Shown here piece by piece: positions 11,507-34,609 of a stretch of DNA of 64,000 nucleotides. The position numbers and the translations under genes are program-made. Location of the stretch: assembly GCA_965215505.1 (NCBI GenBank), contig OZ244065.1, positions 3,904,001 to 3,968,000 on the forward strand, given 5' to 3'. The notes below the pieces were generated by a model, which saw only the letters and a program-made list of their open reading frames with translations, did not search any database and was not told the origin of the DNA. This DNA is from Capsulimonadaceae bacterium (GTDB taxonomy: Bacteria > Armatimonadota > Armatimonadia > Armatimonadales > Capsulimonadaceae). How positions within the stretch are numbered: position 1 is the first letter of the stretch; the number at the start of each line of letters is the position of its first letter.

Positions 11507-11539
11507 TGAAAAGACCGGGCGAGTTTCCTCGCCCGGTTC
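11507..11539 (-). terminator. Intrinsic terminator closing the S8-peptide transcript
   Basis: Minus strand accgggcgag-gaaa-ctcgcccggt-ctttt. Confidence 0.75.
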
Positions 11540-11558
11540 CTGTTCAGCCTTGTCCTGT

Positions 11559-11633
11559 TCATCCGTCCCAGATGATGCGGGGCCGGGGGTGTGGCCGGGG
11601 GCGCACGCTGCGCCTGTCAGGCTTCGGCGTCAT
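11559..11633 (-). CDS. Putative small peptide MTPKPDRRSVRPRPHPRPRIIWDG (24 aa)
   Basis: AAGGAG RBS 6 nt before ATG 11633; lies between the S8 stop (11663) and a terminator; alternative ATG 11639. Confidence 0.6.
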   Translation of the reverse strand: MTPKPDRRSVRPRPHPRPRIIWDG

Positions 11634-11662
11634 GGTCATCTCCTTCCGATCCGTCTGCGTCC

Positions 11663-13744
11663 CTATTCGCCCGCGACGGCTGTGGAGGTGAGGTCCACGG
11701 CCGGCGTGCTGCTGCCCCAGGTCGCCCGGCTGCCCCAGGTCGCCCGGTCGGCACCCGCCAGGGCGCTGCCCCAGGTGGCCCGGTCGGCGTCCGTCAGCGA
11801 ACTGCCCCAGGTGGCCCGGTCGGCGGCCGCCGCCGTGCTGCCCCAGGTCGCCCGGTCCATGAACAGCGAGGTGCTGCCGTCGGGGTTGGTCGTGCTGCCC
11901 CAGGTCGCCCGGTCGGCCCCGACGGAGCTGCCCCAGGTGGCCCGCAGGTCGGTCAGCCCGGTGCCCCACAGGCCGGCGGTCCAGCTCGCCTGGTTGAGGA
12001 CCAGGGAGAGGGTGCCGTCACTGTTGAGCAGCAGGGCGGGGCTGAGGGCGGGGAGGGTGGGCGTGACGGTGCTGGCCAGCGCGGCGGGGATGTCGAGGTA
12101 GCCGGCGCCGTAGGTGAGGGCGTCGCCGGTCCCGTCGGGGGCGGCCCACTTGTCGGCGGAGACCATCAGGCGGGCCTTGATCGTGTCGGGCGTCAGGTTC
12201 GGGTTGGCCTGGAGCATCAGGGCGGCGGCCCCGGCGACGACGGGGGAGGCCATGCTCGTCCCCGACAACTGGAAGTAGTCCCCGGAGGAACCCGTGACCC
12301 CGAGGTTCGCGAGGGACGCCGGTGTCACATAGGAGGTGTAGGGGATCTGGTTGCTACCGCTGTTGTAGGAGTCCAGCGCGCTGCCCTGGGCGTCCAGCGA
12401 GATGACCTTGTTGCCCGCCGCGACGATGTCGGGCTTGAGGATCAGGTCCACGCGGGACGGCCCCCGGCTGGAGTAGGTCGCGATCTTGTCGTCCGTGCGG
12501 TTCGTGTCCGGCGTGCCGTCCGGGTTGAGGGCGCGCTTTGCGGCCCCGACGGTGATGACGTAGGGGTCGTTGGCGGGCGACTGGATGGAGCCGTAGTCGG
12601 TGCCCCAGCCCTCGTTGGAAGCGCCGGGGACGTTCAGGGCGCCGAGGCGGCCAGTGTTGCCCGCCGCGCAGACGACGACGATGCCCGCCCGGTAAACGGC
12701 CTCGACGGCCTGGCAGAGCGGGTCGTTGACGTAAGTGTCTCCGACCGGGTGGCCGAGCGAGAGGTTGACGACGCGGATCGGGGCCTTCTTGTTGTCGTAC
12801 TGGTGGGCGACGATCCACTGGAGGCCAGCGATGACGGCGCTGACGTCGGCCTGTCCGGTCTGGTCGAGTACGCGGACGTTGACGATGTTGGCCTGCGGCG
12901 CGATGCCGTTGAAGGTGTGATAGCAGTAGGCGGCGGGGGAGCGCGAGCCGTTGCCGGCGATGATGCCGGCGACGTGGGTGCCGTGTCCGCAGGGGTCGTA
13001 GCCGTTGGAACTGGGGGCGCTGCCCAGCAGGAGGTTGGTGTCGGTGTCCCCCTCGGCGTCATCGCCGCCTTTGTTCTTCCCCTTGCCGTTCCCGCCGCCG
13101 TTGCCGCCGGATGCGGCGCCGCCGGAGAGGGCGTTGGCGAAGTTGGCGCTGCCGATCACGCGGGACGCGGCCTTGTTGGAGAGGTCGCCGGCCTGGCTGC
13201 TCAGGTCCGCGACGGGCATCACGCCGCTGTCAACCACGGCGACGGTCACGCCCAGCCCGGTGAGCTGGTAGGGCTTGTTCTTCTTGCCCAGCCCCACGGC
13301 CAGGCCGGCCTCGCTGGAGCCGACGGTGAACTCGTCGCTCTTGCGGACCACCCCGTCAAGCGAGAGGTGGGTGACGAACGGCAGCGCGGCCACGCGGCCC
13401 AGGCTGCGCGAGGGCACGCGCACGGCCACCGACCGGATGAAGGGCAGGCGGCGGATGATGTCCGCCCCCAGCGCCCGCAGGGACGCTTCCTGAGCGGGCG
13501 TCAGTGTATCCGCCGTCTTGAGGATGACGGACGACCATCCCGCGCCGGGCCTTACGGCCAGGGTCCGGGCGACGAACAGGTCGGCTTTGGATGCTGTGGA
13601 GGGGGCTGGAGTGGGGGCATCGGCAGACGGGGCGGCGTGGGCCGCGCCCGCCAGCATGGAGGCCACCAGGGAAGAGGTCAGGCCGGCCAGGAGCGCCGGT
13701 GCCAGCCGGGTCCATCCCCGGCGGCAAGAGTCGTTTCGGATCAT
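11663..13744 (-). CDS. Secreted S8 subtilisin-family serine protease with C-terminal RATWGS repeats (copy 1)
   Basis: Signal and pro-region; triad VVDSG, GHGTHVAG, SGTSMA; 7x RATWGS. Confidence 0.93.
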   Translation of the reverse strand: MIRNDSCRRGWTRLAPALLAGLTSSLVASMLAGAAHAAPSADAPTPAPSTASKADLFVARTLAVRPGAGWSSVILKTADTLTPAQEASLRALGADIIRRLPFIRSVAVRVPSRSLGRVAALPFVTHLSLDGVVRKSDEFTVGSSEAGLAVGLGKKNKPYQLTGLGVTVAVVDSGVMPVADLSSQAGDLSNKAASRVIGSANFANALSGGAASGGNGGGNGKGKNKGGDDAEGDTDTNLLLGSAPSSNGYDPCGHGTHVAGIIAGNGSRSPAAYCYHTFNGIAPQANIVNVRVLDQTGQADVSAVIAGLQWIVAHQYDNKKAPIRVVNLSLGHPVGDTYVNDPLCQAVEAVYRAGIVVVCAAGNTGRLGALNVPGASNEGWGTDYGSIQSPANDPYVITVGAAKRALNPDGTPDTNRTDDKIATYSSRGPSRVDLILKPDIVAAGNKVISLDAQGSALDSYNSGSNQIPYTSYVTPASLANLGVTGSSGDYFQLSGTSMASPVVAGAAALMLQANPNLTPDTIKARLMVSADKWAAPDGTGDALTYGAGYLDIPAALASTVTPTLPALSPALLLNSDGTLSLVLNQASWTAGLWGTGLTDLRATWGSSVGADRATWGSTTNPDGSTSLFMDRATWGSTAAAADRATWGSSLTDADRATWGSALAGADRATWGSRATWGSSTPAVDLTSTAVAGE

Positions 13745-13771
13745 TCGTCTTCTTCTCCCTCGGAATCGCGT

Positions 13772-13872
13772 CGTTCGGCGGCCCGGCGGCCCTGCCTTGC
13801 CCTGAATGGGGCGGGGGTTAGGCCCGTGGCTTTGCGTCCCGCGCTTTCGCGCGGTTTGCTCTTGTCAATCGC
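13772..13872 (-). ncRNA. c-di-GMP-I (GEMM-I) riboswitch aptamer, A20 variant
   Basis: AAGAGCAAACCGCGC-GAAA-GCGCGGGACGCAAAGCCACGGGCCTAA...GGCCGCCGGGCCGCCG; GAAA tetraloop with CCUAA receptor half; ends about 28 nt before the S8 ATG. Confidence 0.85.
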
Positions 13873-13932
13873 GAAGGATCGTTTGCTGTGGCTCGGTCGG
13901 CCCGACAGGAGAGTGTCACTTGGGGAGTGTCG

Positions 13933-14025
13933 CCCGTGCGGCAGCTCGGCTGTCTCCTCGATAAGGGGGGAGACCCGCTGGCTTTGCGTCCCGGCCTCGC
14001 GGCCGGTTTGCCCTTGTCGGGGGCG
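13933..14025 (-). ncRNA. c-di-GMP-I (GEMM-I) riboswitch aptamer, G20
   Basis: AAGGGCAAACCGGCC-GCGA-GGCCGGGACGCAAAGCCAGCGGGTCT...AGACAGCCGAGCTGCCG. Confidence 0.88.
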
Positions 14026-14131
14026 GAGAGAACCATCAAGAGAGATTATGGCGTCCGCAGGCACGGGCGTTCACTGTGGGAAGTGCGGGAAATGTGCAGC
14101 GGGGGGAAGTTCGGTCAGGCCTGCGACAAGA

Positions 14132-14166
14132 GTATCGGGGGGAGCGCGGTGCGCTCCCCCCGATAC
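14132..14166 (-). terminator. Terminator-like hairpin after S8 copy 2
   Basis: gtatcggggg(g)agcg/cgctcccccgatac stem followed by TCTTGT on the minus strand. Confidence 0.55.
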
Positions 14167-14202
14167 CGTCAATCTACCTCTGCCGGTCCGGCCGCTCCCT
14201 TC

Positions 14203-16227
14203 CTACTCGCCGTTGATGGCGGTGGAGGTGAGGTCCACCGAGGGACCGCTGCTGCCCCACGTCGCCCGGCTGCCCCAAGTGGCCCGGTCCGCGCCCGCCA
14301 GCGCGCTGCCCCAGGTGGCCCGGTCGGCGTCCGTCAGCGAACTGCCCCACGTCGCCCGGTCGGCGGCCGCCGCCGTGCTGCCCCAGGTCGCGCGGTCCAT
14401 GAACAGCGAAGTGCTGCCGTCGGGGTTGGTCGTGCTGCCCCAGGTCGCCCGGTCGGCCCCGACGGAGCTTCCCCAGGTGGCCCGCAGGTCGGTCAGCCCG
14501 GTGCCCCACAGGCCGCCGCTCCAGGTCGGCTGGTTGAGGACCAGGGAGAGGGTGCCGTCGCCGTTCTCCAGCAGGGCGGGGCTGAGGGCGGGGAGGGTGG
14601 GGGTGACGGTGGAGGCGAGCGCGGCGGGGATGTCGAGGTAGCCGGCGCCGTAGGTGAGGGCGTCGCCGGTCCCGTCGGGGGCGGCCCACTTGTCGGCGGA
14701 GACCATGAGGCGGGCCTTGACGGCGTCGGGGGTGAGTGCGGGGTTGGCCTGGAGCATGAGGGCAGCGGCCCCGGCGACGACGGGGGCGGCCATCGAAGTG
14801 CCCGACAACTGGAAGTAGGCGTAGGAGGAACCGTCCGAGCCGTACTTCCGGTAGCTGGACTGCGGGATGTCATTGGTGCCGCCCGCATAGGTGTCCAGGG
14901 TGCTGTTGTCGGAACACAGCGAGATGACCTTGTTGCCGGGCGCGATGATGTCGGGCTTGAGGATCAGGTCCACGCGGGACGGCCCCCGGCTGGAATAGGT
15001 CGCGATCTTGTCGTGGGCGCGCACGCCGTCCATGCTCTTGGTGGCCCCGACGGTGATGATGGAGGGGTCATTGCCGGGCGACTGGATGGAGCCGTAGTCG
15101 GTGCCCCAGCCCTCGTTGGAGGCACCGGCCAGATTGACGGCCCCGAAGCGGCCAGTGTTGCCCGCCGCGCAGACGACGACGATGCCGGCCTTCCAGACCT
15201 TCTCGACGGCCTGGCAGAGCGGGTCGGTGGCGTAGCTCTCGCCGACCGGGTGGCCGAGCGAGAGGTTGACGACGCGGACCGGCGATTTCGGATTGTCGTC
15301 CTGGTGGGCGACGACCCATTGGAGGCCGGCGATGACGGTCGCGACATCGGCCTGTCCGTTCGCGTCGAGGACGCGGATGTTGGCGATATCGGCTTGCGGC
15401 GCGATGCCGTTAAAGGTGCGGAAGCAGAACAGCCGATTGGACCTCGCCCCGTCGCCGGCGATGATGCCGGCGACATGGGTGCCGTGCCCGCACGGGTCGT
15501 AGAGGCTGCCGTTGTTGCTGGGACCCAGCAGGGTGAGGCTGGTCCCGACGCCGATGATGTTGAGGCCCTGGCCCCTGCCGCCGCTGAGATCGAGCGAGAC
15601 GCCGATCCCGCCGCCGTAGGCACTGCTGCTCCCGGTGAGGTCGGGCGCAAAGTTGACGCTCGCGCGGATGCGAGTCTTGCTGAACGGCCCGAGGTCACTG
15701 TCGGAGAGGTCCTGGACGGGGGCGACACCGCTGTCAACCACGGCGACCGTCACGCCCAGCCCGGTGAGCTGGTACTGGCCGCCGCGCCCGTCCGTGCCGT
15801 GAGCCTGGGCGGCCTCGCTGGAGCCGACGGTGAACTCGTCGCTCTTCCGGACCAGGCCGTTGAGCGACAAATGCGTGATGAACGGCAGGGCGGCCACCCG
15901 GCCCAGGGCGCGTGCGGGGACCCGAACCGCGACCGAGCCGATGAGCGGCAGGTGCCGGGTGATGTCGGCACCCAGGGAGTGGAGCCGGGCCTCCTGCGCG
16001 GGGGTGAGAGTGCCGTCCGTCTTGAGGATGACGGACGACCATCCCGCCGCAGTCTTGGCGGCCAAGGTCCGGGCGACCGCCTGATCGGCGGACGCGGCGG
16101 GGGCGGCTTGGGCGGCACCGGCCAGCATGGGAGCCACCAGCGAGGCGGTCAGGCAAGCCAGGAAGGCCGGGGCCTGACGGGTAGTTCGCGGCCGTGCCGT
16201 GGTGCGGCGTGAGGTATCTTGGATCAT
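14203..16227 (-). CDS. Secreted S8 subtilisin-family serine protease with C-terminal RATWGS repeats (copy 2)
   Basis: Same D/H/S triad; C-terminal part nearly identical to copy 1; ATG 16227 after AAGGA. Confidence 0.93.
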   Translation of the reverse strand: MIQDTSRRTTARPRTTRQAPAFLACLTASLVAPMLAGAAQAAPAASADQAVARTLAAKTAAGWSSVILKTDGTLTPAQEARLHSLGADITRHLPLIGSVAVRVPARALGRVAALPFITHLSLNGLVRKSDEFTVGSSEAAQAHGTDGRGGQYQLTGLGVTVAVVDSGVAPVQDLSDSDLGPFSKTRIRASVNFAPDLTGSSSAYGGGIGVSLDLSGGRGQGLNIIGVGTSLTLLGPSNNGSLYDPCGHGTHVAGIIAGDGARSNRLFCFRTFNGIAPQADIANIRVLDANGQADVATVIAGLQWVVAHQDDNPKSPVRVVNLSLGHPVGESYATDPLCQAVEKVWKAGIVVVCAAGNTGRFGAVNLAGASNEGWGTDYGSIQSPGNDPSIITVGATKSMDGVRAHDKIATYSSRGPSRVDLILKPDIIAPGNKVISLCSDNSTLDTYAGGTNDIPQSSYRKYGSDGSSYAYFQLSGTSMAAPVVAGAAALMLQANPALTPDAVKARLMVSADKWAAPDGTGDALTYGAGYLDIPAALASTVTPTLPALSPALLENGDGTLSLVLNQPTWSGGLWGTGLTDLRATWGSSVGADRATWGSTTNPDGSTSLFMDRATWGSTAAAADRATWGSSLTDADRATWGSALAGADRATWGSRATWGSSGPSVDLTSTAINGE

Positions 16228-16255
16228 TTGCTTTTCTTTCCTTCGGAGTCGCACA

Positions 16256-16360
16256 GTTCGGCGGCCCGGCGGCCGTGCCCCGCCGCGGTCGAGCCGGGGT
16301 AGGGGTTAGGCCCGTGGCTTTGCGTCGCCGCCTTTCGGCGGGCATGCTCTTGATTAATCG
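16256..16360 (-). ncRNA. c-di-GMP-I (GEMM-I) riboswitch aptamer, A20 variant
   Basis: AAGAGCATGCCCGCC-GAAA-GGCGGCGACGCAAAGCCACGGGCCTAA...GGCCGCCGGGCCGCCG. Confidence 0.8.
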
Positions 16361-16451: not shown

Positions 16452-16542
16452 CGTGCGGCGGCCCGGCCGTCTTCAGCGGGACTGAAGACCCGTCGGCTTT
16501 GCGTCCCGGCCGTGCGAGCCGGTGTGCCCTAGTCTGGGGCGG
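16452..16542 (-). ncRNA. c-di-GMP-I (GEMM-I) riboswitch aptamer, G20
   Basis: TAGGGCACACCGGC...GCCGGGACGCAAAGCCGACGGGTCTTCAG...CTGAAGACGGCCGGGCCGCCG. Confidence 0.8.
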
Positions 16543-30492: not shown

Positions 30493-32487
30493 ATGAGCCT
30501 CACCCTTTTTACCCTCGGCCTGCTCTGCGCCCGCTCCGCTCAGGCACAAGACGATTGGAACGTCACCGACAAAGACGGCAGCACCCTCCAAGTCTCCGGT
30601 GCCGGCTACCCCCTCACCGGCACCGCCACTGGCAAGGCCAAAAACACCTACCCCGCAGATATGACCTTCGTCGCCAAACTCGCGCCCTACTACGACTTGG
30701 AATACGGGTGGGTAGACAACAGCCAGTGGCTCCAGGCTGCCTCCGGCGGCCCCCACTCCTACGACCCCAACCCGCTCGGCGTCCCTTACCTTTACAACGA
30801 CGGGACCACCGGCCCGCCCTCGACCCTCATCGCGCTGAACGCCACCGCCCACAACTACGCCTTCAACAACAGCTACTATGGGTCCTTCAACCCCGAAGAC
30901 TACCCCTTTTACACATACCAGACGTACAAGGATGTGAGTGACTGTGAGCCGATCATCGGCAACGTGACCGGCAGGGCCAAAGGGACGCTGTGGGCGAACT
31001 GGAACTGGACGGGGTCCGGGGCGGCCCCGGACCACCTAGACATCTTGCTGACCACGAACGTGCAGGCGTCGAAGTCCTACGAGAACGGCTCGGAGGAGAC
31101 GGACCTGATCGCGACGGCGACAGCCTCGGACGGGGACCCGTTCAACGAGACGGCGAGTTCCGATGGCCCAGGAGGTAGGGAGCAGGCGGGTGGCCGCCAC
31201 CTGCTGCGTGTTCCAGTGTCAGGCGGGGTGGCGGCGGTGTCTTTGAACGGCAACGTGAGCGCCTCGGCGACCAACAACCTCCAGTACGGGGGGTTCAGCT
31301 ATCCCTACTATCAGATCTACGGCGGGCGTAACCCGACCGGTGCCCGCAGCTACGCCTCGGTTTCGGCTACCGCTATGGTAGACAGCCGGGACGTGACGAT
31401 TACCTCAGACATCGATCCAACCTATAAAAAAGGCAGAGTGGCGGATCGGGTAGGACATCCTGTTCAAGACCAGTGGGGCAATGACCTCTACGAGCCTGTC
31501 CAGAACAAGCTCGACGCGGATGGCACAGGGCATGGGGATGTGGGTCTGGCGGCTTCACCGCAGAGCGTAATGGTGCCAACGCCCTCCGACTCCTACCTGT
31601 ATGTTACCTACAAGGGCAACTATTCCGGTAGCTGGCACGTTTCCGGCCTCATGGAATGGTGGTATTCTGCCTTGACGGGTTCTTCAGCCGTTGGCACCCT
31701 CATTAACTCCTTCGACGAATCAGGCTTCGTCGTATCCTATGTTAGACCAAGCGATCCGCAAGTAATCGGCTATGACCCGTATGACGGGACCCCCCTCTAC
31801 TCCCAGGCGGTGCCGGGCAAAACCGGCACGGACCATGTTCACCTTACCTGTGAAGATGCTGCCCCCTATTCGGACTCTGGCGGTGATGGCGCTTTCGCGA
31901 CAGCCAACTATTACATGAACATGCATGACACGGAAGAAAATCCCTTCAAGTTCCGTGCTGATGAATACTATTGGCAGGATCTGCAACTGAATACGCCGGT
32001 TCCTACAGCTAATTTCAATCTCAATCCGACCGTCACCGTCTCAGCAAAAGATAATCCTGCCACCACTGGCGGGGCGCTGGGAATCAGCAGCTTATGGACG
32101 GTCGGCTTTAACGCAATGCCGGGATGGCTGCAAGGTATCTTAAAGGTTGCCGGCATTTCGGACGACAGCCTCAAGCCTGAGACGCTAACTTGGAGCGTCG
32201 GATTCAATGATGTATGGGACAACTCCAGCATAGATGGCGCGACGTGGCAAGGTGGCGTAAAACCGGCAGACAGCCAAAAGGCGTTTTGGCAAATGACGCC
32301 GCGTGTGCAGCGGTACTACATCCGCACTTGGACACGCTCGGATCATTATGTCATGCCTGGCGATGACTCCGGCTACACTGGTTTTGCAGGACAGGACCCT
32401 CAGCACTTCGAATCCAGATGCAACCAATCAGGCTCAGTGGGATTGCGCGGGTCTGGTGATTTCTCTCTGAACCCTCCCACTTCTTGA
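30493..32487 (+). CDS. Secreted hypothetical protein (664 aa), 5' end ambiguous
   Basis: Signal-peptide-like ...ARSAQA; Tyr/Trp/Gly/Thr-rich; an in-frame upstream RBS+ATG at 30379 is cut off by TAA 30454. Confidence 0.75.
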   Translation: MSLTLFTLGLLCARSAQAQDDWNVTDKDGSTLQVSGAGYPLTGTATGKAKNTYPADMTFVAKLAPYYDLEYGWVDNSQWLQAASGGPHSYDPNPLGVPYLYNDGTTGPPSTLIALNATAHNYAFNNSYYGSFNPEDYPFYTYQTYKDVSDCEPIIGNVTGRAKGTLWANWNWTGSGAAPDHLDILLTTNVQASKSYENGSEETDLIATATASDGDPFNETASSDGPGGREQAGGRHLLRVPVSGGVAAVSLNGNVSASATNNLQYGGFSYPYYQIYGGRNPTGARSYASVSATAMVDSRDVTITSDIDPTYKKGRVADRVGHPVQDQWGNDLYEPVQNKLDADGTGHGDVGLAASPQSVMVPTPSDSYLYVTYKGNYSGSWHVSGLMEWWYSALTGSSAVGTLINSFDESGFVVSYVRPSDPQVIGYDPYDGTPLYSQAVPGKTGTDHVHLTCEDAAPYSDSGGDGAFATANYYMNMHDTEENPFKFRADEYYWQDLQLNTPVPTANFNLNPTVTVSAKDNPATTGGALGISSLWTVGFNAMPGWLQGILKVAGISDDSLKPETLTWSVGFNDVWDNSSIDGATWQGGVKPADSQKAFWQMTPRVQRYYIRTWTRSDHYVMPGDDSGYTGFAGQDPQHFESRCNQSGSVGLRGSGDFSLNPPTS

Positions 32488-32509
32488 CTTCTACCGGAGG
32501 AGGCCTTGG

Positions 32510-33331
32510 ATGCGAACACCGGCCATCAGTCTTATTCTTCTGGCGTTCGTGGCTGGCTGTGGATTACATCATGCCTCCTCCCAGCAGTTTGTTCCGCGTC
32601 CTGTCTCACAGCCGGAAATAGAGGCCCGTCAGAACTTTGCTTGGTCAAGACTTCCGATCAACGGCGATGATACGCCTTACGCTCAGATCGCGTTACACAT
32701 TGACCAGGCGATCCGGTCTGGGGTTTCCCCGCAATCACTCCGCAGTCAATACGGCCTCCAGGCACAGCGACAGTCCGATAGCCCGCAAGCACAGTTTGCC
32801 TGGGCTTATGCTTCCTGGAAAGCTCTGCCTGCGGATTTTACCCTATCCGATAAAGCGGACATACTGGAAGGTGTTCCAGAAGCATTAGCCCATGCCACGT
32901 TTCCACGCGCATACCACTTCGCCCGCATCCGCTTCCTAGTAGAAGGCTCTGACTCGCGGATGTGGCCGCTCGGGGAGACGTTGTTGGCACATGATCCCAA
33001 TGACAAGGAGGTCAAGACAAATCTGATTAACTGCTACGGTGCTTTTTTGCTAGCTTCCAAACCGAGCGATGCCACTGTGCCGAAGATCAAGCAAAAGGCG
33101 CTTTCTTACGCGCAGGATATGCTGCGGTCTGACCCTCAAAAACCGAGATACCACGCCACTATTGGATGGGTTTACTTGATGTCATGGGCGGAAAAAAGCA
33201 ACCAGAACGACGGCCGGAACGCCATCAAGTACTTCCAAGAGTATCTGCGCCTCGCGCCTGCTAATGACAGTTGGCGCAGGCAGGCAGAGTCCTTCATCAA
33301 AATGATCCAGAGCCAGCAACAGTCAAAGTAA
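32510..33331 (+). CDS. Putative lipoprotein with TPR-like helical repeats
   Basis: GGAGG RBS; lipobox VAGC; C-terminal AIKYFQEYLRLAP. Confidence 0.75.
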   Translation: MRTPAISLILLAFVAGCGLHHASSQQFVPRPVSQPEIEARQNFAWSRLPINGDDTPYAQIALHIDQAIRSGVSPQSLRSQYGLQAQRQSDSPQAQFAWAYASWKALPADFTLSDKADILEGVPEALAHATFPRAYHFARIRFLVEGSDSRMWPLGETLLAHDPNDKEVKTNLINCYGAFLLASKPSDATVPKIKQKALSYAQDMLRSDPQKPRYHATIGWVYLMSWAEKSNQNDGRNAIKYFQEYLRLAPANDSWRRQAESFIKMIQSQQQSK

Positions 33332-33625
33332 GATTGGGTGCGAAACTGTACTTGTTACCAAACATGACGCCTCGTTTCAAGTTCAGCCAGCCGTTTGAGG
33401 AGCGACTAGCAAGGTACTGACCATCTTCAATTAAGGACAGGCACAAGCTGTCTGCCTTCTCCATTGCGCCTTCTCTGGGATGGCACTGCCGCCCTTGACC
33501 GAGTTTTCTGCTCCCTTCTGCCTATCTTAGTAGGACTGAGACTTTCCGCCGCCTTTGACGTGGGAGAAGCAGGCCCCCTATGTTTGGGGCCTGCGCTTCG
33601 TTAAAGAGGGAAACACTACAGCACG

Positions 33626-34609
33626 ATGAAGAATACGTCGGACCTCAAAATGCCTTCGGCGTCTTCACCTACCTTGGGCCTGGATCGTGAGGGGGCCAAC
33701 GATGATGAGGGCCGATCCGGTGAGAATCAACAAAAAAAGGCACTCGCGTTTGCGGCGGCAGTGGCTATGATCGTCACCTATTCCGCCGCAACGCAGCGGG
33801 CTTGGCTGACGGCGCTCGTGCCCATGGCGGCGGAAGCCGCCATCGACCCACTCGCTGCCGCGCGATACCAGGAATATGCGCCCAGTGACCCCGTAGGGGA
33901 GAAAACCATCGCTGAGAACGCATCCTCCTGGCGGCATGAGACATGGGGCGGCGACGACGGCCCTTATCAGAAAGCGCGCCGGGAGATTGATGCTGCTGTC
34001 GCTGCCGGCACATCCCCCATGCATCTTGCGCGCCAGTATGAAGCGCAAGCGGACCAGAACCCGAAGGCCCCTTTAGATCAATTCCGCTGGGGCTATGCCC
34101 TGTGGAGAACATTCACGCCGACTTCCACATCGGCTGAAAAGGGGACGAATAAACCAGGCGCTTTCTATTCACTGGCAAAGATCGAATCACCTAACACCTA
34201 CAACTACGCCCGCTTAAGGTATCTGCTCTCGTATCAGAGCGGCGACCTGACGGCGCTAGGTGAAAGGTTGATACAGCGGGATAACCAGGATGTGCAGGTC
34301 AAAGCCCATCTCGCTCTGGATTACACAACGCCTGGCTCGAAGCCGTACACCTTGGAGGTCAAACGCAGGGGCATCCAACTCTCGGAGGAGTTGATCCAGT
34401 CTGACCCAAAGTACCCTCAATATCACGCCATTCTCGCAGAAGAATACATAACGAGTTACTATGTAAATGGTCATCATCGCCAGGACGCTGCGGCTGCGGT
34501 CGTGGCGCTGAAGGAATACCTGACCCTGGCAAAGCCCAACGAGTTCTTCTATGAAGCGGCGAAAACCCGTGTCGCCACTTTGGAGCAGGAGTTAAATGGG
34601 GGTAAATAG
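33626..34609 (+). CDS. TPR-like protein, paralogue of 32510..33331
   Basis: Shared GDD.PY...ID.A...G.SP..L..QY..QA...P..QF.W.YA.W and EYL.LA motifs; start uncertain. Confidence 0.75.
   Translation: MKNTSDLKMPSASSPTLGLDREGANDDEGRSGENQQKKALAFAAAVAMIVTYSAATQRAWLTALVPMAAEAAIDPLAAARYQEYAPSDPVGEKTIAENASSWRHETWGGDDGPYQKARREIDAAVAAGTSPMHLARQYEAQADQNPKAPLDQFRWGYALWRTFTPTSTSAEKGTNKPGAFYSLAKIESPNTYNYARLRYLLSYQSGDLTALGERLIQRDNQDVQVKAHLALDYTTPGSKPYTLEVKRRGIQLSEELIQSDPKYPQYHAILAEEYITSYYVNGHHRQDAAAAVVALKEYLTLAKPNEFFYEAAKTRVATLEQELNGGK

Follow-up and report, generated by a model that had tools for sequence, protein, structure and literature searches.

A tryptophan-motif micro-ORF beside WG-tailed S8 subtilase genes: a possible protease and peptide module in Armatimonadota and Acidobacteriota

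Two S8 subtilases of a Capsulimonadaceae bacterium end in a run of short tryptophan (Trp) motifs, and directly behind the gene for one of them stands a micro-ORF whose product ends in a similar motif. Do the tail and the micropeptide belong together? If so, are they precursors of short Trp peptides released by the protease, as the original prediction held, or do they serve the enzyme in another way? We addressed these questions in the window, a stretch of 64,000 nt, and in related genomes.

Tandem subtilase genes, their tails and the ORF behind copy 1

The two S8 genes lie in tandem on the minus strand. Copy 1 (11663..13744, stop codon at 11663-11665) encodes 693 aa, and copy 2 (14203..16254) encodes 683 aa when read from a GTG, with an ATG nine codons in. 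Copy 1 comprises, in this order, an N-terminal hydrophobic signal-like segment, a propeptide-like domain, the catalytic domain and the WG tail. Pfam Peptidase_S8 (PF00082) was matched at 156.4 bits by copy 1 and at 155.6 bits by copy 2 (cut-off 21.8). No other Pfam family was found in either at E<=0.1, the Inhibitor_I9 propeptide profile included, and in the AlphaFold2 model a confidently predicted alpha/beta domain occupies residues ~60-135, ahead of the catalytic core. Both copies contain the motif blocks VAVVDSG, CGHGTHVAG and SGTSMA(S/A)P. In an alignment of 74 sequences, the catalytic and oxyanion residues H254, N363 and S497 show no variation and conservation of D172 reaches at least 90%, which upholds the earlier claim of intact D/H/S triads. 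The closest solved chains are 9ues_B and 3afg_A (E ~1e-29). Assignment to the type VII secretion mycosins was rejected (TIGR03921, 122.2 bits against an NCBIfam cut-off of 278.75).

A tandem pair of c-di-GMP aptamers is predicted ahead of each gene, all four on the minus strand and above the gathering thresholds of the Rfam covariance models. Before copy 1, a c-di-GMP-I aptamer (RF01051; 13774..13870, 63 bits, threshold 35) lies proximally and a c-di-GMP-I-GGC variant (RF03167; 13936..14021, 66.5 bits, threshold 59) distally. Before copy 2, c-di-GMP-I aptamers lie at 16257..16358 (54.4 bits) and 16454..16538 (41.8 bits; threshold 35 for both). A c-di-GMP riboswitch accompanied 12/12 genus loci examined, and MASE9/HD-GYP, GGDEF and PilZ genes adjoin the protease in relatives. 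Neighbouring genes in the window encode a TetR regulator, a deaminase and DUF4337 and DUF1345 proteins. As a separate observation, MASE9-type HD-GYP/GGDEF genes sit by S8 paralogues and by acidobacterial relatives, with sigma-54/PilZ genes also adjacent in an acidobacterial relative.

Each protease ends in exactly seven RATWGS units with variable spacers (0-13 aa), as had been described: at aa 601-678 of copy 1 (11711..11944) and at aa 591-668 of copy 2 (14251..14484), both on the minus strand. The units are identical in protein, and the nucleotide differences between them are synonymous without exception, with a mean of 2.1 nt of 18 in copy 2. Between species the units of a tail shift in concert (RATWGS, RAAWGS, RAMWGS, RAVWGS, HALWGT and RAMWSS). 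The repeats of copy 1 are followed by a terminal segment, VDLTSTAVAGE, that is found family-wide, and the pattern VDL[ST]S.A..GE is conserved at this place in most relatives.

For the tail segments (115 and 165 aa), no family came up in Pfam at E<=10 or in NCBIfam at E<=1, and no profile of known cell-wall, choline or carbohydrate-binding repeat families was matched; the peptides, likewise, have no Pfam or NCBIfam family. In AlphaFold2 models, the tail of the window protein had a pLDDT of 25-42 (below 50 at residues 608-619 and 623-693; 74-row alignment), and the tail of an acidobacterial protein with 10 perfect SAVWGS units had a pLDDT of 22-35 (46-row alignment), the catalytic cores being confident in both modelled proteins (n=2). 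The tail is predicted to be unstructured, and not a folded repeat domain or beta-solenoid. Since neither of the 2 models showed a confident tail fold, the tails look like arrays of linear motifs, and the models speak against the structural repeat that had been offered earlier as an alternative. As a lone query against proteins of 63-202 aa, the tail returned one match, so free-standing tail-like proteins of this size are uncommon. The clusters closest to a tail query in the ESM Atlas were small hypothetical proteins of Acidobacteriota (0.91), which we treat as a lead only.

The micro-ORF (11559..11633, minus strand; ATG at 11633, TGA at 11559) consists of 24 codons and a stop, and its translation, MTPKPDRRSVRPRPHPRPRIIWDG, ends in PRIIWDG. 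A Shine-Dalgarno-like (SD) sequence, GGAAGGAG (11640..11647, minus strand), stands 6 nt ahead of the ATG. At 21 nt past the stop lies a terminator-like hairpin (11514..11537, minus strand), with a 10 bp stem (8 GC) followed by CTTTTC. The arrangement first reported, an SD-led ORF of 24 codons between copy 1 and a terminator-like hairpin, was thus recovered. A terminator scan gave 3 sites per 5.8 kb where 2.6 +/- 1.6 were expected, so the terminator match is weak on its own; inspected by eye, a GC-rich hairpin lies 3' of the micro-ORF in 15/15 related loci, and an SD-like sequence was found in 13/15. A 136-aa GTG ORF (11559..11969), which overlaps the S8 tail in another frame, ends as the micro-ORF does; the 24-codon version was preferred because the SD and the conservation fit only that start. 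An extension of the S8 protein by read-through or frameshift was rejected, as the ORF uses a different frame, is led by an SD of its own and, in relatives, is separated from the S8 stop by 6-79 nt. Neither a hydrophobic segment nor a signal sequence was found in the micropeptide, in 14 aligned relatives or in any other micropeptide of the genus. No micro-ORF was found downstream of copy 2.

Small Trp-motif ORFs beside S8 genes in two phyla

Homologous ORFs of 12-28 codons with an RRRIFWEG-type end follow the orthologous S8 gene in 17 of the 24 genus genomes. A hidden Markov model (HMM) built from 15 micro-ORFs was searched against 71 genomes of the order and gave one strong match per genome in 17/24 genus genomes; 16 of these 17 matches lay directly 3' of a WG-tailed S8 gene, and the 17th lay at a contig end. 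In its own genome, the micro-ORF was the sole significant match (next E = 0.75). What is conserved is mainly the last 8-9 codons; length and N-terminus are variable. For the last 9 codons of the 17 orthologues, the entropy at codon positions 1, 2 and 3 was 0.41, 0.43 and 0.92, respectively. Their stop codons are mixed (TAA 7, TAG 6, TGA 4), and the W stays three residues from the end. By the coding-type variation of its sequence, the micro-ORF is a real gene, and it is probably translated in vivo. The conservation of the micropeptide, on which the original prediction depended, was thus found.

The original prediction also proposed a search for small Trp-motif ORFs beside other WG-repeat S8 genes, and such partners were found in the genus, in other Armatimonadota and in Acidobacteriota. 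In another family of the order, 3 of the 5 assessable loci of a more distant S8 subfamily have a downstream small ORF, encoding 5 x RNITWDRG, 4 x NVAWTVTDE and 15 aa ending in NIIWDKG, respectively. In named Armatimonadota MAG loci, two further ORFs, ending in RIIWGS and RIVWGT, adjoin genes with RAIWGT tails. In Acidobacteriota, small ORFs ending in ASAVWG[S/A] are adjacent to the S8 gene at six loci. The acidobacterial small-protein family comprises at least 120 protein clusters at E<=1.1e-5, and all 34 sequences examined end in ASAVWG[S/A/N]. These partners, membrane or signal-peptide proteins of ~43 aa, have a Lys-rich N-terminus, then a ~20-aa hydrophobic segment and a short tail; one contains a lipobox-like LVIGC.

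In the genomes of these loci, a DNA pattern for A-S-A-V-W-G-S-stop had 1, 1, 1, 2 and 1 matches per genome, only beside an S8 gene, and its reversed control had 0. When the search was begun from the acidobacterial peptide, 2/2 new genomes carried the peptide gene beside one for an S8 protease. Among 300 further genomes sampled evenly across the class, the pattern had 2 matches versus 4 for the reversed control, and the match with a real stop had no start codon and no S8 gene nearby; the ASAVWGS family is therefore confined to narrower lineages. Across the two phyla, the linkage is exclusive to WG-tailed S8 genes, the small ORFs of other clades lying either upstream or downstream of the S8 gene.

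Tail and peptide also match in the residue three before the Trp, which co-varies between them: R/R in this genus, L086 and L101, N/N in G036, G027 and G033, and S/S in Acidobacteriota. Such co-variation in three clades indicates that the R-x-x-W register shared by tail and micropeptide, noticed earlier in the window, is no accident. Basic residues flank the units, as in R-NITWDR-G of the multi-copy ORF, NIIWDK-G, and the RRR before IFWEG. Searched against protein representatives, the 59-aa five-repeat ORF had 26 matches at E<=0.001; the 13 that were inspected were nearly all unrelated low-complexity repeat proteins, and no clear wider family emerged among them. One of the 13, an 88-aa protein with RIAWDRV repeats, may be a relative.

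Possible roles of the tail and the peptide

We tentatively favour a module of a protease and Trp-peptide precursors within a c-di-GMP-controlled circuit. The first part would be a secreted subtilase with an unstructured C-terminal tail in which a hydrophobic-hydrophobic-W-G-S/T motif recurs (RATWGS x 7 here), and the second a separately translated small peptide with one copy of the motif at its extreme C-terminus (...PRIIWDG-COOH). The Trp motif would be the element that the protease domain recognises. Tail and small peptide would both be precursors, trimmed by the S8 domain to short peptides ending in W-x-x-COOH, and these peptides may act as a signal outside the cell or at its surface. Control would come here from the tandem c-di-GMP riboswitches before both genes, and in relatives from the MASE9/HD-GYP, GGDEF and PilZ genes. 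The earlier reading as a whole gains from the conservation of the micro-ORF, the shared register, the unstructured tail, and the multi-copy and Sec-type versions of the small ORF; cleavage at the motif, export of the leaderless window peptide and any signalling role are steps that we infer. In Bacillus, according to passages of PMC11343458, tandemly duplicated pheromone propeptides are matured by extracellular proteases; for CSF, the same passages name subtilisin, Epr and Vpr.

Several observations count against the precursor reading. The terminal segment after the repeats is conserved, and a disposable polyprotein would have no need of one. The small ORF is missing from 7 of the 24 genus genomes, from copy 2 and from the other five S8 paralogues of this genome. 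The peptides carry RIIWDG or RIFWEG and the tails RATWGS or RAMWGS, motifs that are not identical. The protease has a signal-like segment that the micropeptide lacks, and the precursor reading does not account for how the two would meet. The acidobacterial small protein is conserved across all 43 aa, not just at its end, a pattern that suits a membrane protein no less than a propeptide. Finally, no receptor gene linked to the S8 locus was found among the window neighbours.

The Trp motif is absent from the probable propeptide junction of the protease in the consensus of the 74-sequence alignment, so it is not evidently the enzyme's self-cleavage site. A complex prediction of a relative's S8 domain and tail (residues 144-660) with its own 59-aa partner scored 0.00 and weighs neither way.

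The chief competing explanation is that motif and peptide inhibit or dock with the enzyme; the same data fit it, and we consider it somewhat unlikely. The Trp motif would then dock in the S8 cleft as a pseudo-substrate; the tail would be autoinhibitory or regulatory, and the peptide would act in trans as a product-like inhibitor or competitor, located in the cytoplasm in this genus and in the periplasm or membrane in Acidobacteriota. The small ORF lies directly 3' of the protease gene in one operon, and small inhibitor genes are found just after protease genes in SpeB-Spi, staphopain-staphostatin and AprA-AprI, where the protease is likewise secreted. In these systems, Spi resembles part of the protease precursor, and inhibitors occur in cytoplasmic and periplasmic versions. 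An inhibitor would also account for the fixed place of the W, third from the free C-terminal end in each of four groups (WDG, WEG, WGS, WGT), as for a product-like P3 ligand. It would suit a leaderless peptide, which needs no export, the existence of small proteins both with and without a signal segment, and the co-variation of the peptide motif with the tail. However, the inhibitors of these operons are folded proteins of ~100 aa, and we know of none as small as 12-28 aa whose sequence matches an array of repeats. Peptides as short as 12 aa would inhibit weakly, and an N-terminal propeptide-like domain, the usual holder of the inhibitory job, is already there. Moreover, Sec-exported enzymes are unfolded in the cytoplasm, and multi-copy ORFs with basic flanks resemble precursors more.

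The precursor reading has a more specific form, which we think unlikely. The protease would mature a short Trp-peptide pheromone and would itself be the polyprotein from which that pheromone is cut, the micropeptide gene being a second source that can be tuned separately. The peptides would be sensed through the membrane sensors of c-di-GMP enzymes (MASE9-type HD-GYP/GGDEF), and the signal would feed back via the tandem c-di-GMP riboswitches on the protease genes. If true, Armatimonadota and Acidobacteriota would have a self-contained quorum-sensing loop that runs on peptides; to our knowledge, none is known in either phylum.

Anchoring is a less probable role again. Trp-rich arrays often occur in proteins that bind sugars or membranes, and the array could tether the protease to a polysaccharide, membrane or matrix, the small protein being a membrane-anchored copy of the motif that binds the tail, or a competitor that releases the enzyme. 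The acidobacterial partners, with their Lys-rich N-terminus, ~20-aa hydrophobic segment, external ASAVWGS tail and, in one case, lipobox-like sequence, would suit this role, as would c-di-GMP control, which befits matrix or biofilm functions. Yet the tail matched no known binding repeat in Pfam or NCBIfam, its models contain no confident fold, and the genus peptides have no membrane segment.

Very improbable, in our estimate, is a cis-acting 3' ORF, in which the nascent Arg/Pro-rich peptide with I-F-W-E-G-stop would stall the ribosome at termination and so influence S8 mRNA stability or termination, with no function left to the peptide. The micropeptide may resemble arrest peptides and Pro/Arg-rich peptides, its conservation clusters in the last 8-9 codons by the stop while length and N-terminus vary, and a hairpin lies 5-27 nt downstream. 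However, the distance between ORF and hairpin is not conserved, the downstream genes vary by species, and in other clades the related small proteins contain several motif copies or are membrane proteins, with genes on either side of the S8 gene; nor would a tunnel-acting peptide need a motif that co-varies with the protease tail. A chance ORF in a GC-rich spacer, functionally unlinked to an ordinary structural repeat beside it, is scarcely credible: 24 codons are unremarkable in DNA of ~70% G+C, where Arg/Pro-rich translations are typical, but this explanation is contradicted by the retention of the ORF in 17/24 genus genomes with coding-type substitutions and by the S8-only ASAVWGS-stop pattern, and further by the lack of a second significant match in its own genome and the analogous partners in a second phylum.

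Relation to known systems

Our search of openly searchable literature returned no description of the module, and one may still exist in print elsewhere. The pairing of protease and peptide in two bacterial phyla looks like an undescribed module. It defines a small-gene family (12-28 codons here) that gene callers mostly miss. Together with the ~43-aa acidobacterial protein family, annotated so far only as hypothetical, this family is tied to one protease subfamily in two soil phyla that are experimentally poorly studied. If the Trp peptides are released signals, as in the precursor reading that we prefer, they would connect extracellular proteolysis to c-di-GMP lifestyle control in a new way and give a first entry point to cell-cell signalling in Armatimonadota and Acidobacteriota. 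If they are inhibitors or docking elements, they would represent a new and very compact form of subtilase regulation. Under either reading, the module yields simple testable predictions.

The cyanobactin proteases PatA/PatG are similar in that an S8 domain acts on precursors via short recognition motifs by the cores, and multi-core precursors are possible. Membership was rejected, however: the S8 proteins lie far under the NCBIfam cut-off (TIGR03895, 36.8 bits against 421), and no tailoring genes (heterocyclase etc.) were seen among the window neighbours. PatS/HetN of heterocystous cyanobacteria and ComS/XIP of streptococci are leaderless peptides of 13-17 aa that are active through their C-terminal 5-7 residues; the PatS/HetN motif is also embedded in a larger protein, and XIP carries a Trp. 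They differ from the module in that the protease gene is unlinked, the receptors are known and the motifs are others. In yeast, alpha-factor is made as tandem Trp-containing peptide copies with spacers, cut by the S8-family kexin Kex2. Tandem Trp-motif copies and an S8 protease occur here as well, with basic flanks in some relatives; unlike the module, the yeast system is eukaryotic, keeps precursor and protease separate and has no conserved C-terminal cap.

Phr/CSF propeptides, in the passages of PMC11343458 that describe them, are ~40 aa long, begin with an export segment, carry the short active peptide at the very C-terminal end and also occur as tandem duplications. The acidobacterial ASAVWGS proteins share this small-precursor layout. 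In contrast, the partner of a Phr gene encodes a cytoplasmic TPR receptor (Rap) and not the protease, and no adjacent TPR receptor of the Rap/NprR/PlcR/PrgX type was found among the window neighbours. The window peptide has no export segment, and the secretion signal expected of Phr/RRNPP peptides is lacking from it and its 14 relatives, whereas the acidobacterial partners do have a hydrophobic segment. Further differences are that the motif is here also repeated on the protease itself, and that Phr/CSF belongs to Bacillus and the present module to Armatimonadota and Acidobacteriota. Beside another S8 paralogue of this genome sits a TPR-GGDEF-HD-GYP gene, which is not of the RRNPP type.

Tandem subtilases and their Trp-Gly tails

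The two tandem S8 genes under study, recognized from the ORF listing and Pfam, lie on the minus strand at 11663..13744 (copy 1, 693 aa) and 14203..16254 (copy 2, 683 aa), in a window with a G+C content of about 69%. Against Pfam Peptidase_S8 (cut-off 21.8), copy 1 scored 156.4 bits and copy 2 scored 155.6 bits; no other Pfam family was found for either copy at E≤0.1. S8 subfamilies of NCBIfam were matched below cut-off only; membership was rejected for the mycosins (score 122 vs a cut-off of 279) and for PatA/PatG of the cyanobactin system (37 vs 421). The closest solved chains were the generic subtilisin-like proteases 9ues_B and 3afg_A (E ~1e-29). In a 74-sequence alignment, H254, N363 and S497 were invariant and D172 was conserved in at least 90%. 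A hydrophobic signal-like segment could be read off the sequence at the N-terminus, and AlphaFold2 placed a confident small alpha/beta domain (~60-135) ahead of the catalytic core. Judged by these matches, the enzyme is an ordinary S8 protease. The original prediction had assigned an intact D/H/S triad and seven RATWGS units to each copy, and both proteins were found to carry the catalytic blocks and the repeats, with exactly seven units at the end of each and spacers of 0-13 residues.

The copies share 72% protein identity overall (499/690). In 50-nt bins, their DNA was 88-100% identical over a stretch that begins about 500 nt ahead of the stop codon and ends 50 nt ahead of it. Identity was 76% in the final 50 nt and 28% directly past the stop codons; over the 200 nt upstream of the conserved 3' stretch it was 38-84%, increasing toward the stretch. 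Given this per-bin pattern, with far greater divergence outside the near-identical 3' tract (11663-12160 vs 14203-14700, minus strand), we take the tract as probable gene conversion that spans the catalytic-domain end and the tail of both copies.

Within each copy the seven units were identical in protein, with no nonsynonymous difference; at synonymous sites the units of copy 1 differed by a mean of 0.86 nt and those of copy 2 by 2.1 nt. Since protein identity was kept despite synonymous differences, the pattern points to selection acting on the peptide sequence of each RATWGS unit. After the repeats both copies end in ...VDLTSTA(V/I)(A/N)GE, a conserved cap located in copy 1 at 11666-11698 (minus strand) by comparing tails across relatives. 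VDL[ST]S.A..GE ends nearly every Armatimonadota member after the repeats, and ..[NG]GE[KN] ends many acidobacterial S8 tails.

A search with the tail as sole query recovered 72 proteins, S8 without exception. The closest named relatives, according to record titles, were from Armatimonadota, at 43-61% identity, and from Acidobacteriota, at 36-40%. Arrays of x-x-x-W-G-x were present in nearly all of the S8 relatives examined, with units uniform within a protein and different between proteins (among them RATWGS, RAAWGS, RAMWGS, RAVWGS, HALWGT, HVIWGT, NAVWGN, SAVWGS and AVIWGD); the species of G003 had RAMWSS in place of RAMWGS in every unit. The Trp-Gly (WG) tail is, by these searches, a family trait of these S8 proteins. 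The original prediction had offered a structural repeat as an alternative. In an AlphaFold2 model of the window protein (74-row alignment), most of the core had pLDDT >80, while residues 608-693 had only 25-42. To give the structural-repeat idea the most favourable case, a second model (46 rows) was made of an acidobacterial relative whose tail has ten perfect SAVWGS units; that tail had pLDDT 22-35. Neither of the two models thus predicted a confident fold, and Pfam and NCBIfam, both searched, hold no model for the tail or for any of the small peptides described below. The variable spacers, the lack of a profile match and the two models argue for a tail predicted to be an unstructured array of linear motifs.

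A small reading frame downstream of copy 1

The TAG of copy 1 is followed by 15 nt, GGAAGGAG, ATGACC, and the ATG at 11633 of a micro-ORF (11559..11633, minus strand), whose 24 codons translate into a peptide ending in PRIIWDG before a TGA at 11559. A GC-rich hairpin with a 10-bp stem and a T-run (11537..11514, minus strand) lies 21 nt past it; the terminator scan that found this hairpin showed no enrichment by itself (3 sites vs 2.6 expected). The layout of a Shine-Dalgarno (SD)-led 24-aa ORF between copy 1 and a terminator was therefore as originally described in every detail. Downstream of copy 2 there was no micro-ORF, and the hairpin there was without a T-run.

The best S8 relatives were collected from 40 related genomes, and such genes were present in 41/41 genomes including the window's own, which has seven. 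When 400 nt downstream were translated, a small ORF ending R-R-R-I-[FIVTS]-W-[EDG]-G-stop was found in 13/17 genes, and a 14th downstream ORF was recovered by pattern search. An HMM built from 15 peptides (alignment A1) and searched against 71 genomes of the order gave a single clear match per genome in 17 of the 24 genomes of the genus; the match was directly 3' of a WG-tailed S8 gene in 16 of them and at a contig end in the remaining one. In the window's genome the second-best match had only E = 0.75. Among the seven genus genomes with no HMM match, three were only 75-76% complete and three had the orthologous locus minus the ORF.

The peptides were 12-28 aa long, with varying N-termini and a fixed C-terminal end, the Trp being constantly third from the end whichever stop codon was used by the 17 orthologues (TAA 7, TAG 6, TGA 4). 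Over their last nine codons, entropy was 0.41 at the first codon position and 0.43 at the second, against 0.92 at the third. An SD-like sequence was present in 13/15 loci, the remaining ORFs beginning 6-8 nt past the S8 stop, and a GC-rich hairpin was seen by eye after the micro-ORF in 15/15. What emerges is the pattern of a gene that is translated rather than that of an RNA element or of a frame open by chance. The micropeptide put forward in the original prediction is conserved in the genus, both by HMM match and by its coding-type variation.

Two loci differed in structure. At 2058-2150 of L016 (G003) the micro-ORF end is tandemly duplicated in DNA, and the IFWEG-stop codons recur out of frame immediately past the first stop. 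At L002, in a close relative (G011), the micro-ORF is absent after the S8 stop and the deaminase-type gene that follows seems to lack roughly the first 100 nt of its counterpart in the window, as though one deletion had taken out the micro-ORF together with the start of that gene; misassembly of the MAG could also account for the difference.

Partner peptides in other lineages

Small Trp-motif ORFs beside other WG-tailed S8 genes, which the original prediction proposed to look for, were found in both Armatimonadota and Acidobacteriota. In a second family of the order, which has a divergent S8 subfamily, a downstream small ORF was present at three of five assessable loci; two more loci run off contig edges. 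One is a 59-aa ORF with five RNITWDRG units, paired with a tail of NNLVWGGTGR units. Another, of 15 aa with its own SD and terminator, ends in NIIWDKG beside NNLIWGGHID units, and the third, of 48 aa if read from an inner ATG or 60 aa from the earliest in-frame one, has four NVAWTVTDE-type units and a partner tail of DNASWNTGGD units. RAIWGT tails at two named MAG loci of Armatimonadota have neighbouring ORFs that end in RIIWGS and in RIVWGT.

At 6/58 loci, most of the 58 labelled Acidobacteriota, the S8 gene has one or two small neighbours with an ASAVWG[S/A] end, lying just upstream of it in four and just downstream in two. A profile of these peptides matched 399 proteins at E≤10. The top 120 among them had E≤1.1e-5, were 40-74 aa long and were named 'hypothetical protein' at most. 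All 34 sequences fetched ended in ASAVWG[S/A/N]. The proteins begin Lys-rich, continue through about 20 hydrophobic residues and an adjoining conserved segment, and finish in the motif. This ~43-aa family comprises at least 120 clusters (proteins P0074-P0193; loci L121, L125, L129, L136, L147, L153, L177 and L178). A DNA pattern encoding A-S-A-V-W-G-S-stop, searched in the five genomes that carry these loci, occurred only beside S8 (1, 1, 1, 2 and 1 matches), and the reversed control pattern gave zero matches. In the opposite direction, starting from the peptide, the profile matched four of 61 genomes of one family, and in both newly found genomes the small ORF adjoins an S8 gene. Across 300 further genomes sampled evenly from the class, there were 2 pattern matches vs 4 for the control, which is noise; the peptide family is therefore limited to some lineages.

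Clade by clade, the residue three before the Trp matches between tail and partner peptide: Arg in the window's genus and the two MAG loci, Asn at all three second-family loci, and Ser in Acidobacteriota. At the one locus where the Gly after the Trp was lost in the tail (W-N), the partner peptide likewise lacks it (W-T). Other positions in the window's genus are unlike (tail A-[MTAV]-W-G-S vs peptide I-[FIVTS]-W-[ED]-G).

The c-di-GMP context and the possible role of the module

A tandem pair of c-di-GMP-I aptamers stands ahead of each S8 copy on the minus strand, at 13936-14021 (the GGC variant, RF03167) and 13774-13870 before copy 1, and at 16257-16358 and 16454-16538 before copy 2. By score, these riboswitches are ordinary Rfam members. 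Such aptamers, often in tandem, preceded S8 in 12/12 genus loci tested and also a three-gene S8 paralogue cluster in the window's genome; outside the genus they preceded S8 in 0/7 loci tested. The window's genome has five further WG-tailed S8 paralogues (L074-L076, L164-L166; G000:C1 1950078-1953594, 2398748-2403045 and 4265508-4274591), none with a micro-ORF. Their tails are of HVIWGT, AIIWGE, TLWGS and RATWGS type, and their neighbours are MASE9-HD-GYP-GAF-GGDEF, TPR-GGDEF-HD-GYP and MASE9-SpoIIE proteins, the weak MASE9 matches falling below the Pfam cut-off. In Acidobacteriota a MASE9 membrane protein follows S8 (one of two tested exceeds the cut-off), and other S8 loci are flanked by a MASE9-HD-GYP-GAF protein (MASE9 below cut-off) and a sigma-54 activator with a PilZ domain. 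A preprint outlines MASE9 as a membrane sensor domain of unknown ligand (bioRxiv 10.1101/2021.11.05.467447). The window's own S8 neighbours (TetR, a cytidine-deaminase-type gene, DUF4337 and a weak DUF1345 match) give no hint of function.

It is firm that a conserved module pairs a secreted, WG-tailed subtilase with a translated small peptide that has a similar C-terminal motif, and the micro-ORF very probably functions as a gene linked to the tail motif. The reading we favour, tentatively and by inference, is that the two stand as precursor and protease and would feed a peptide signal into a c-di-GMP circuit. The S8 domain would recognize the Trp motif and trim the tail and the small peptide into short peptides ending W-x-x-COOH, which would act as the signal. 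Such processing is favoured by the basic flanks in multi-copy ORFs, by the Sec-type precursors, whose product past the hydrophobic segment would be a ~6-25-aa peptide ending in the motif, and by units uniform inside a protein and divergent between species. It has a precedent in Bacillus, where, as one report outlines, secreted proteases mature tandem pheromone propeptides (PMC11343458). However, no receptor is linked, the tail and peptide motifs are not identical, the repeats are followed by a conserved cap, the acidobacterial small protein is conserved over its full length, and the window's peptide is leaderless. This last point, together with the fixed distance of the Trp from the free C-terminus, is explained by the main rival, in which the motif docks in the active-site cleft, the tail being autoinhibitory and the peptide a product-like inhibitor; we consider it rather unlikely. 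Anchoring or surface binding is improbable, a cis-acting arrest ORF still more so, and chance is scarcely credible.

The reading of a protease that releases Trp peptides was partly supported and much broadened, and we rate the module as a peptide with a processing or regulating protease. Kexin-cut polyprotein pheromones, PatS/HetN and protease-inhibitor operons are, together with Phr-type propeptides matured outside the cell, the closest analogues in working principle. Two known systems were rejected: the RRNPP system, as the window's peptide has no signal sequence and there is no RRNPP-type TPR receptor, and the cyanobactin system, whose defining features the module lacks. Tail, micropeptide and tail-peptide pairing match no curated family, and a literature search, with subscription journals and supplements outside its scope, found the module described nowhere.

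Elsewhere in the window, three plus-strand ORFs of 664, 273 and 327 aa, for which no Pfam family or PADLOC model was found at E≤0.001, lie within a low-G+C island at 30493-34609 (G+C 0.55-0.61 vs ~0.69).
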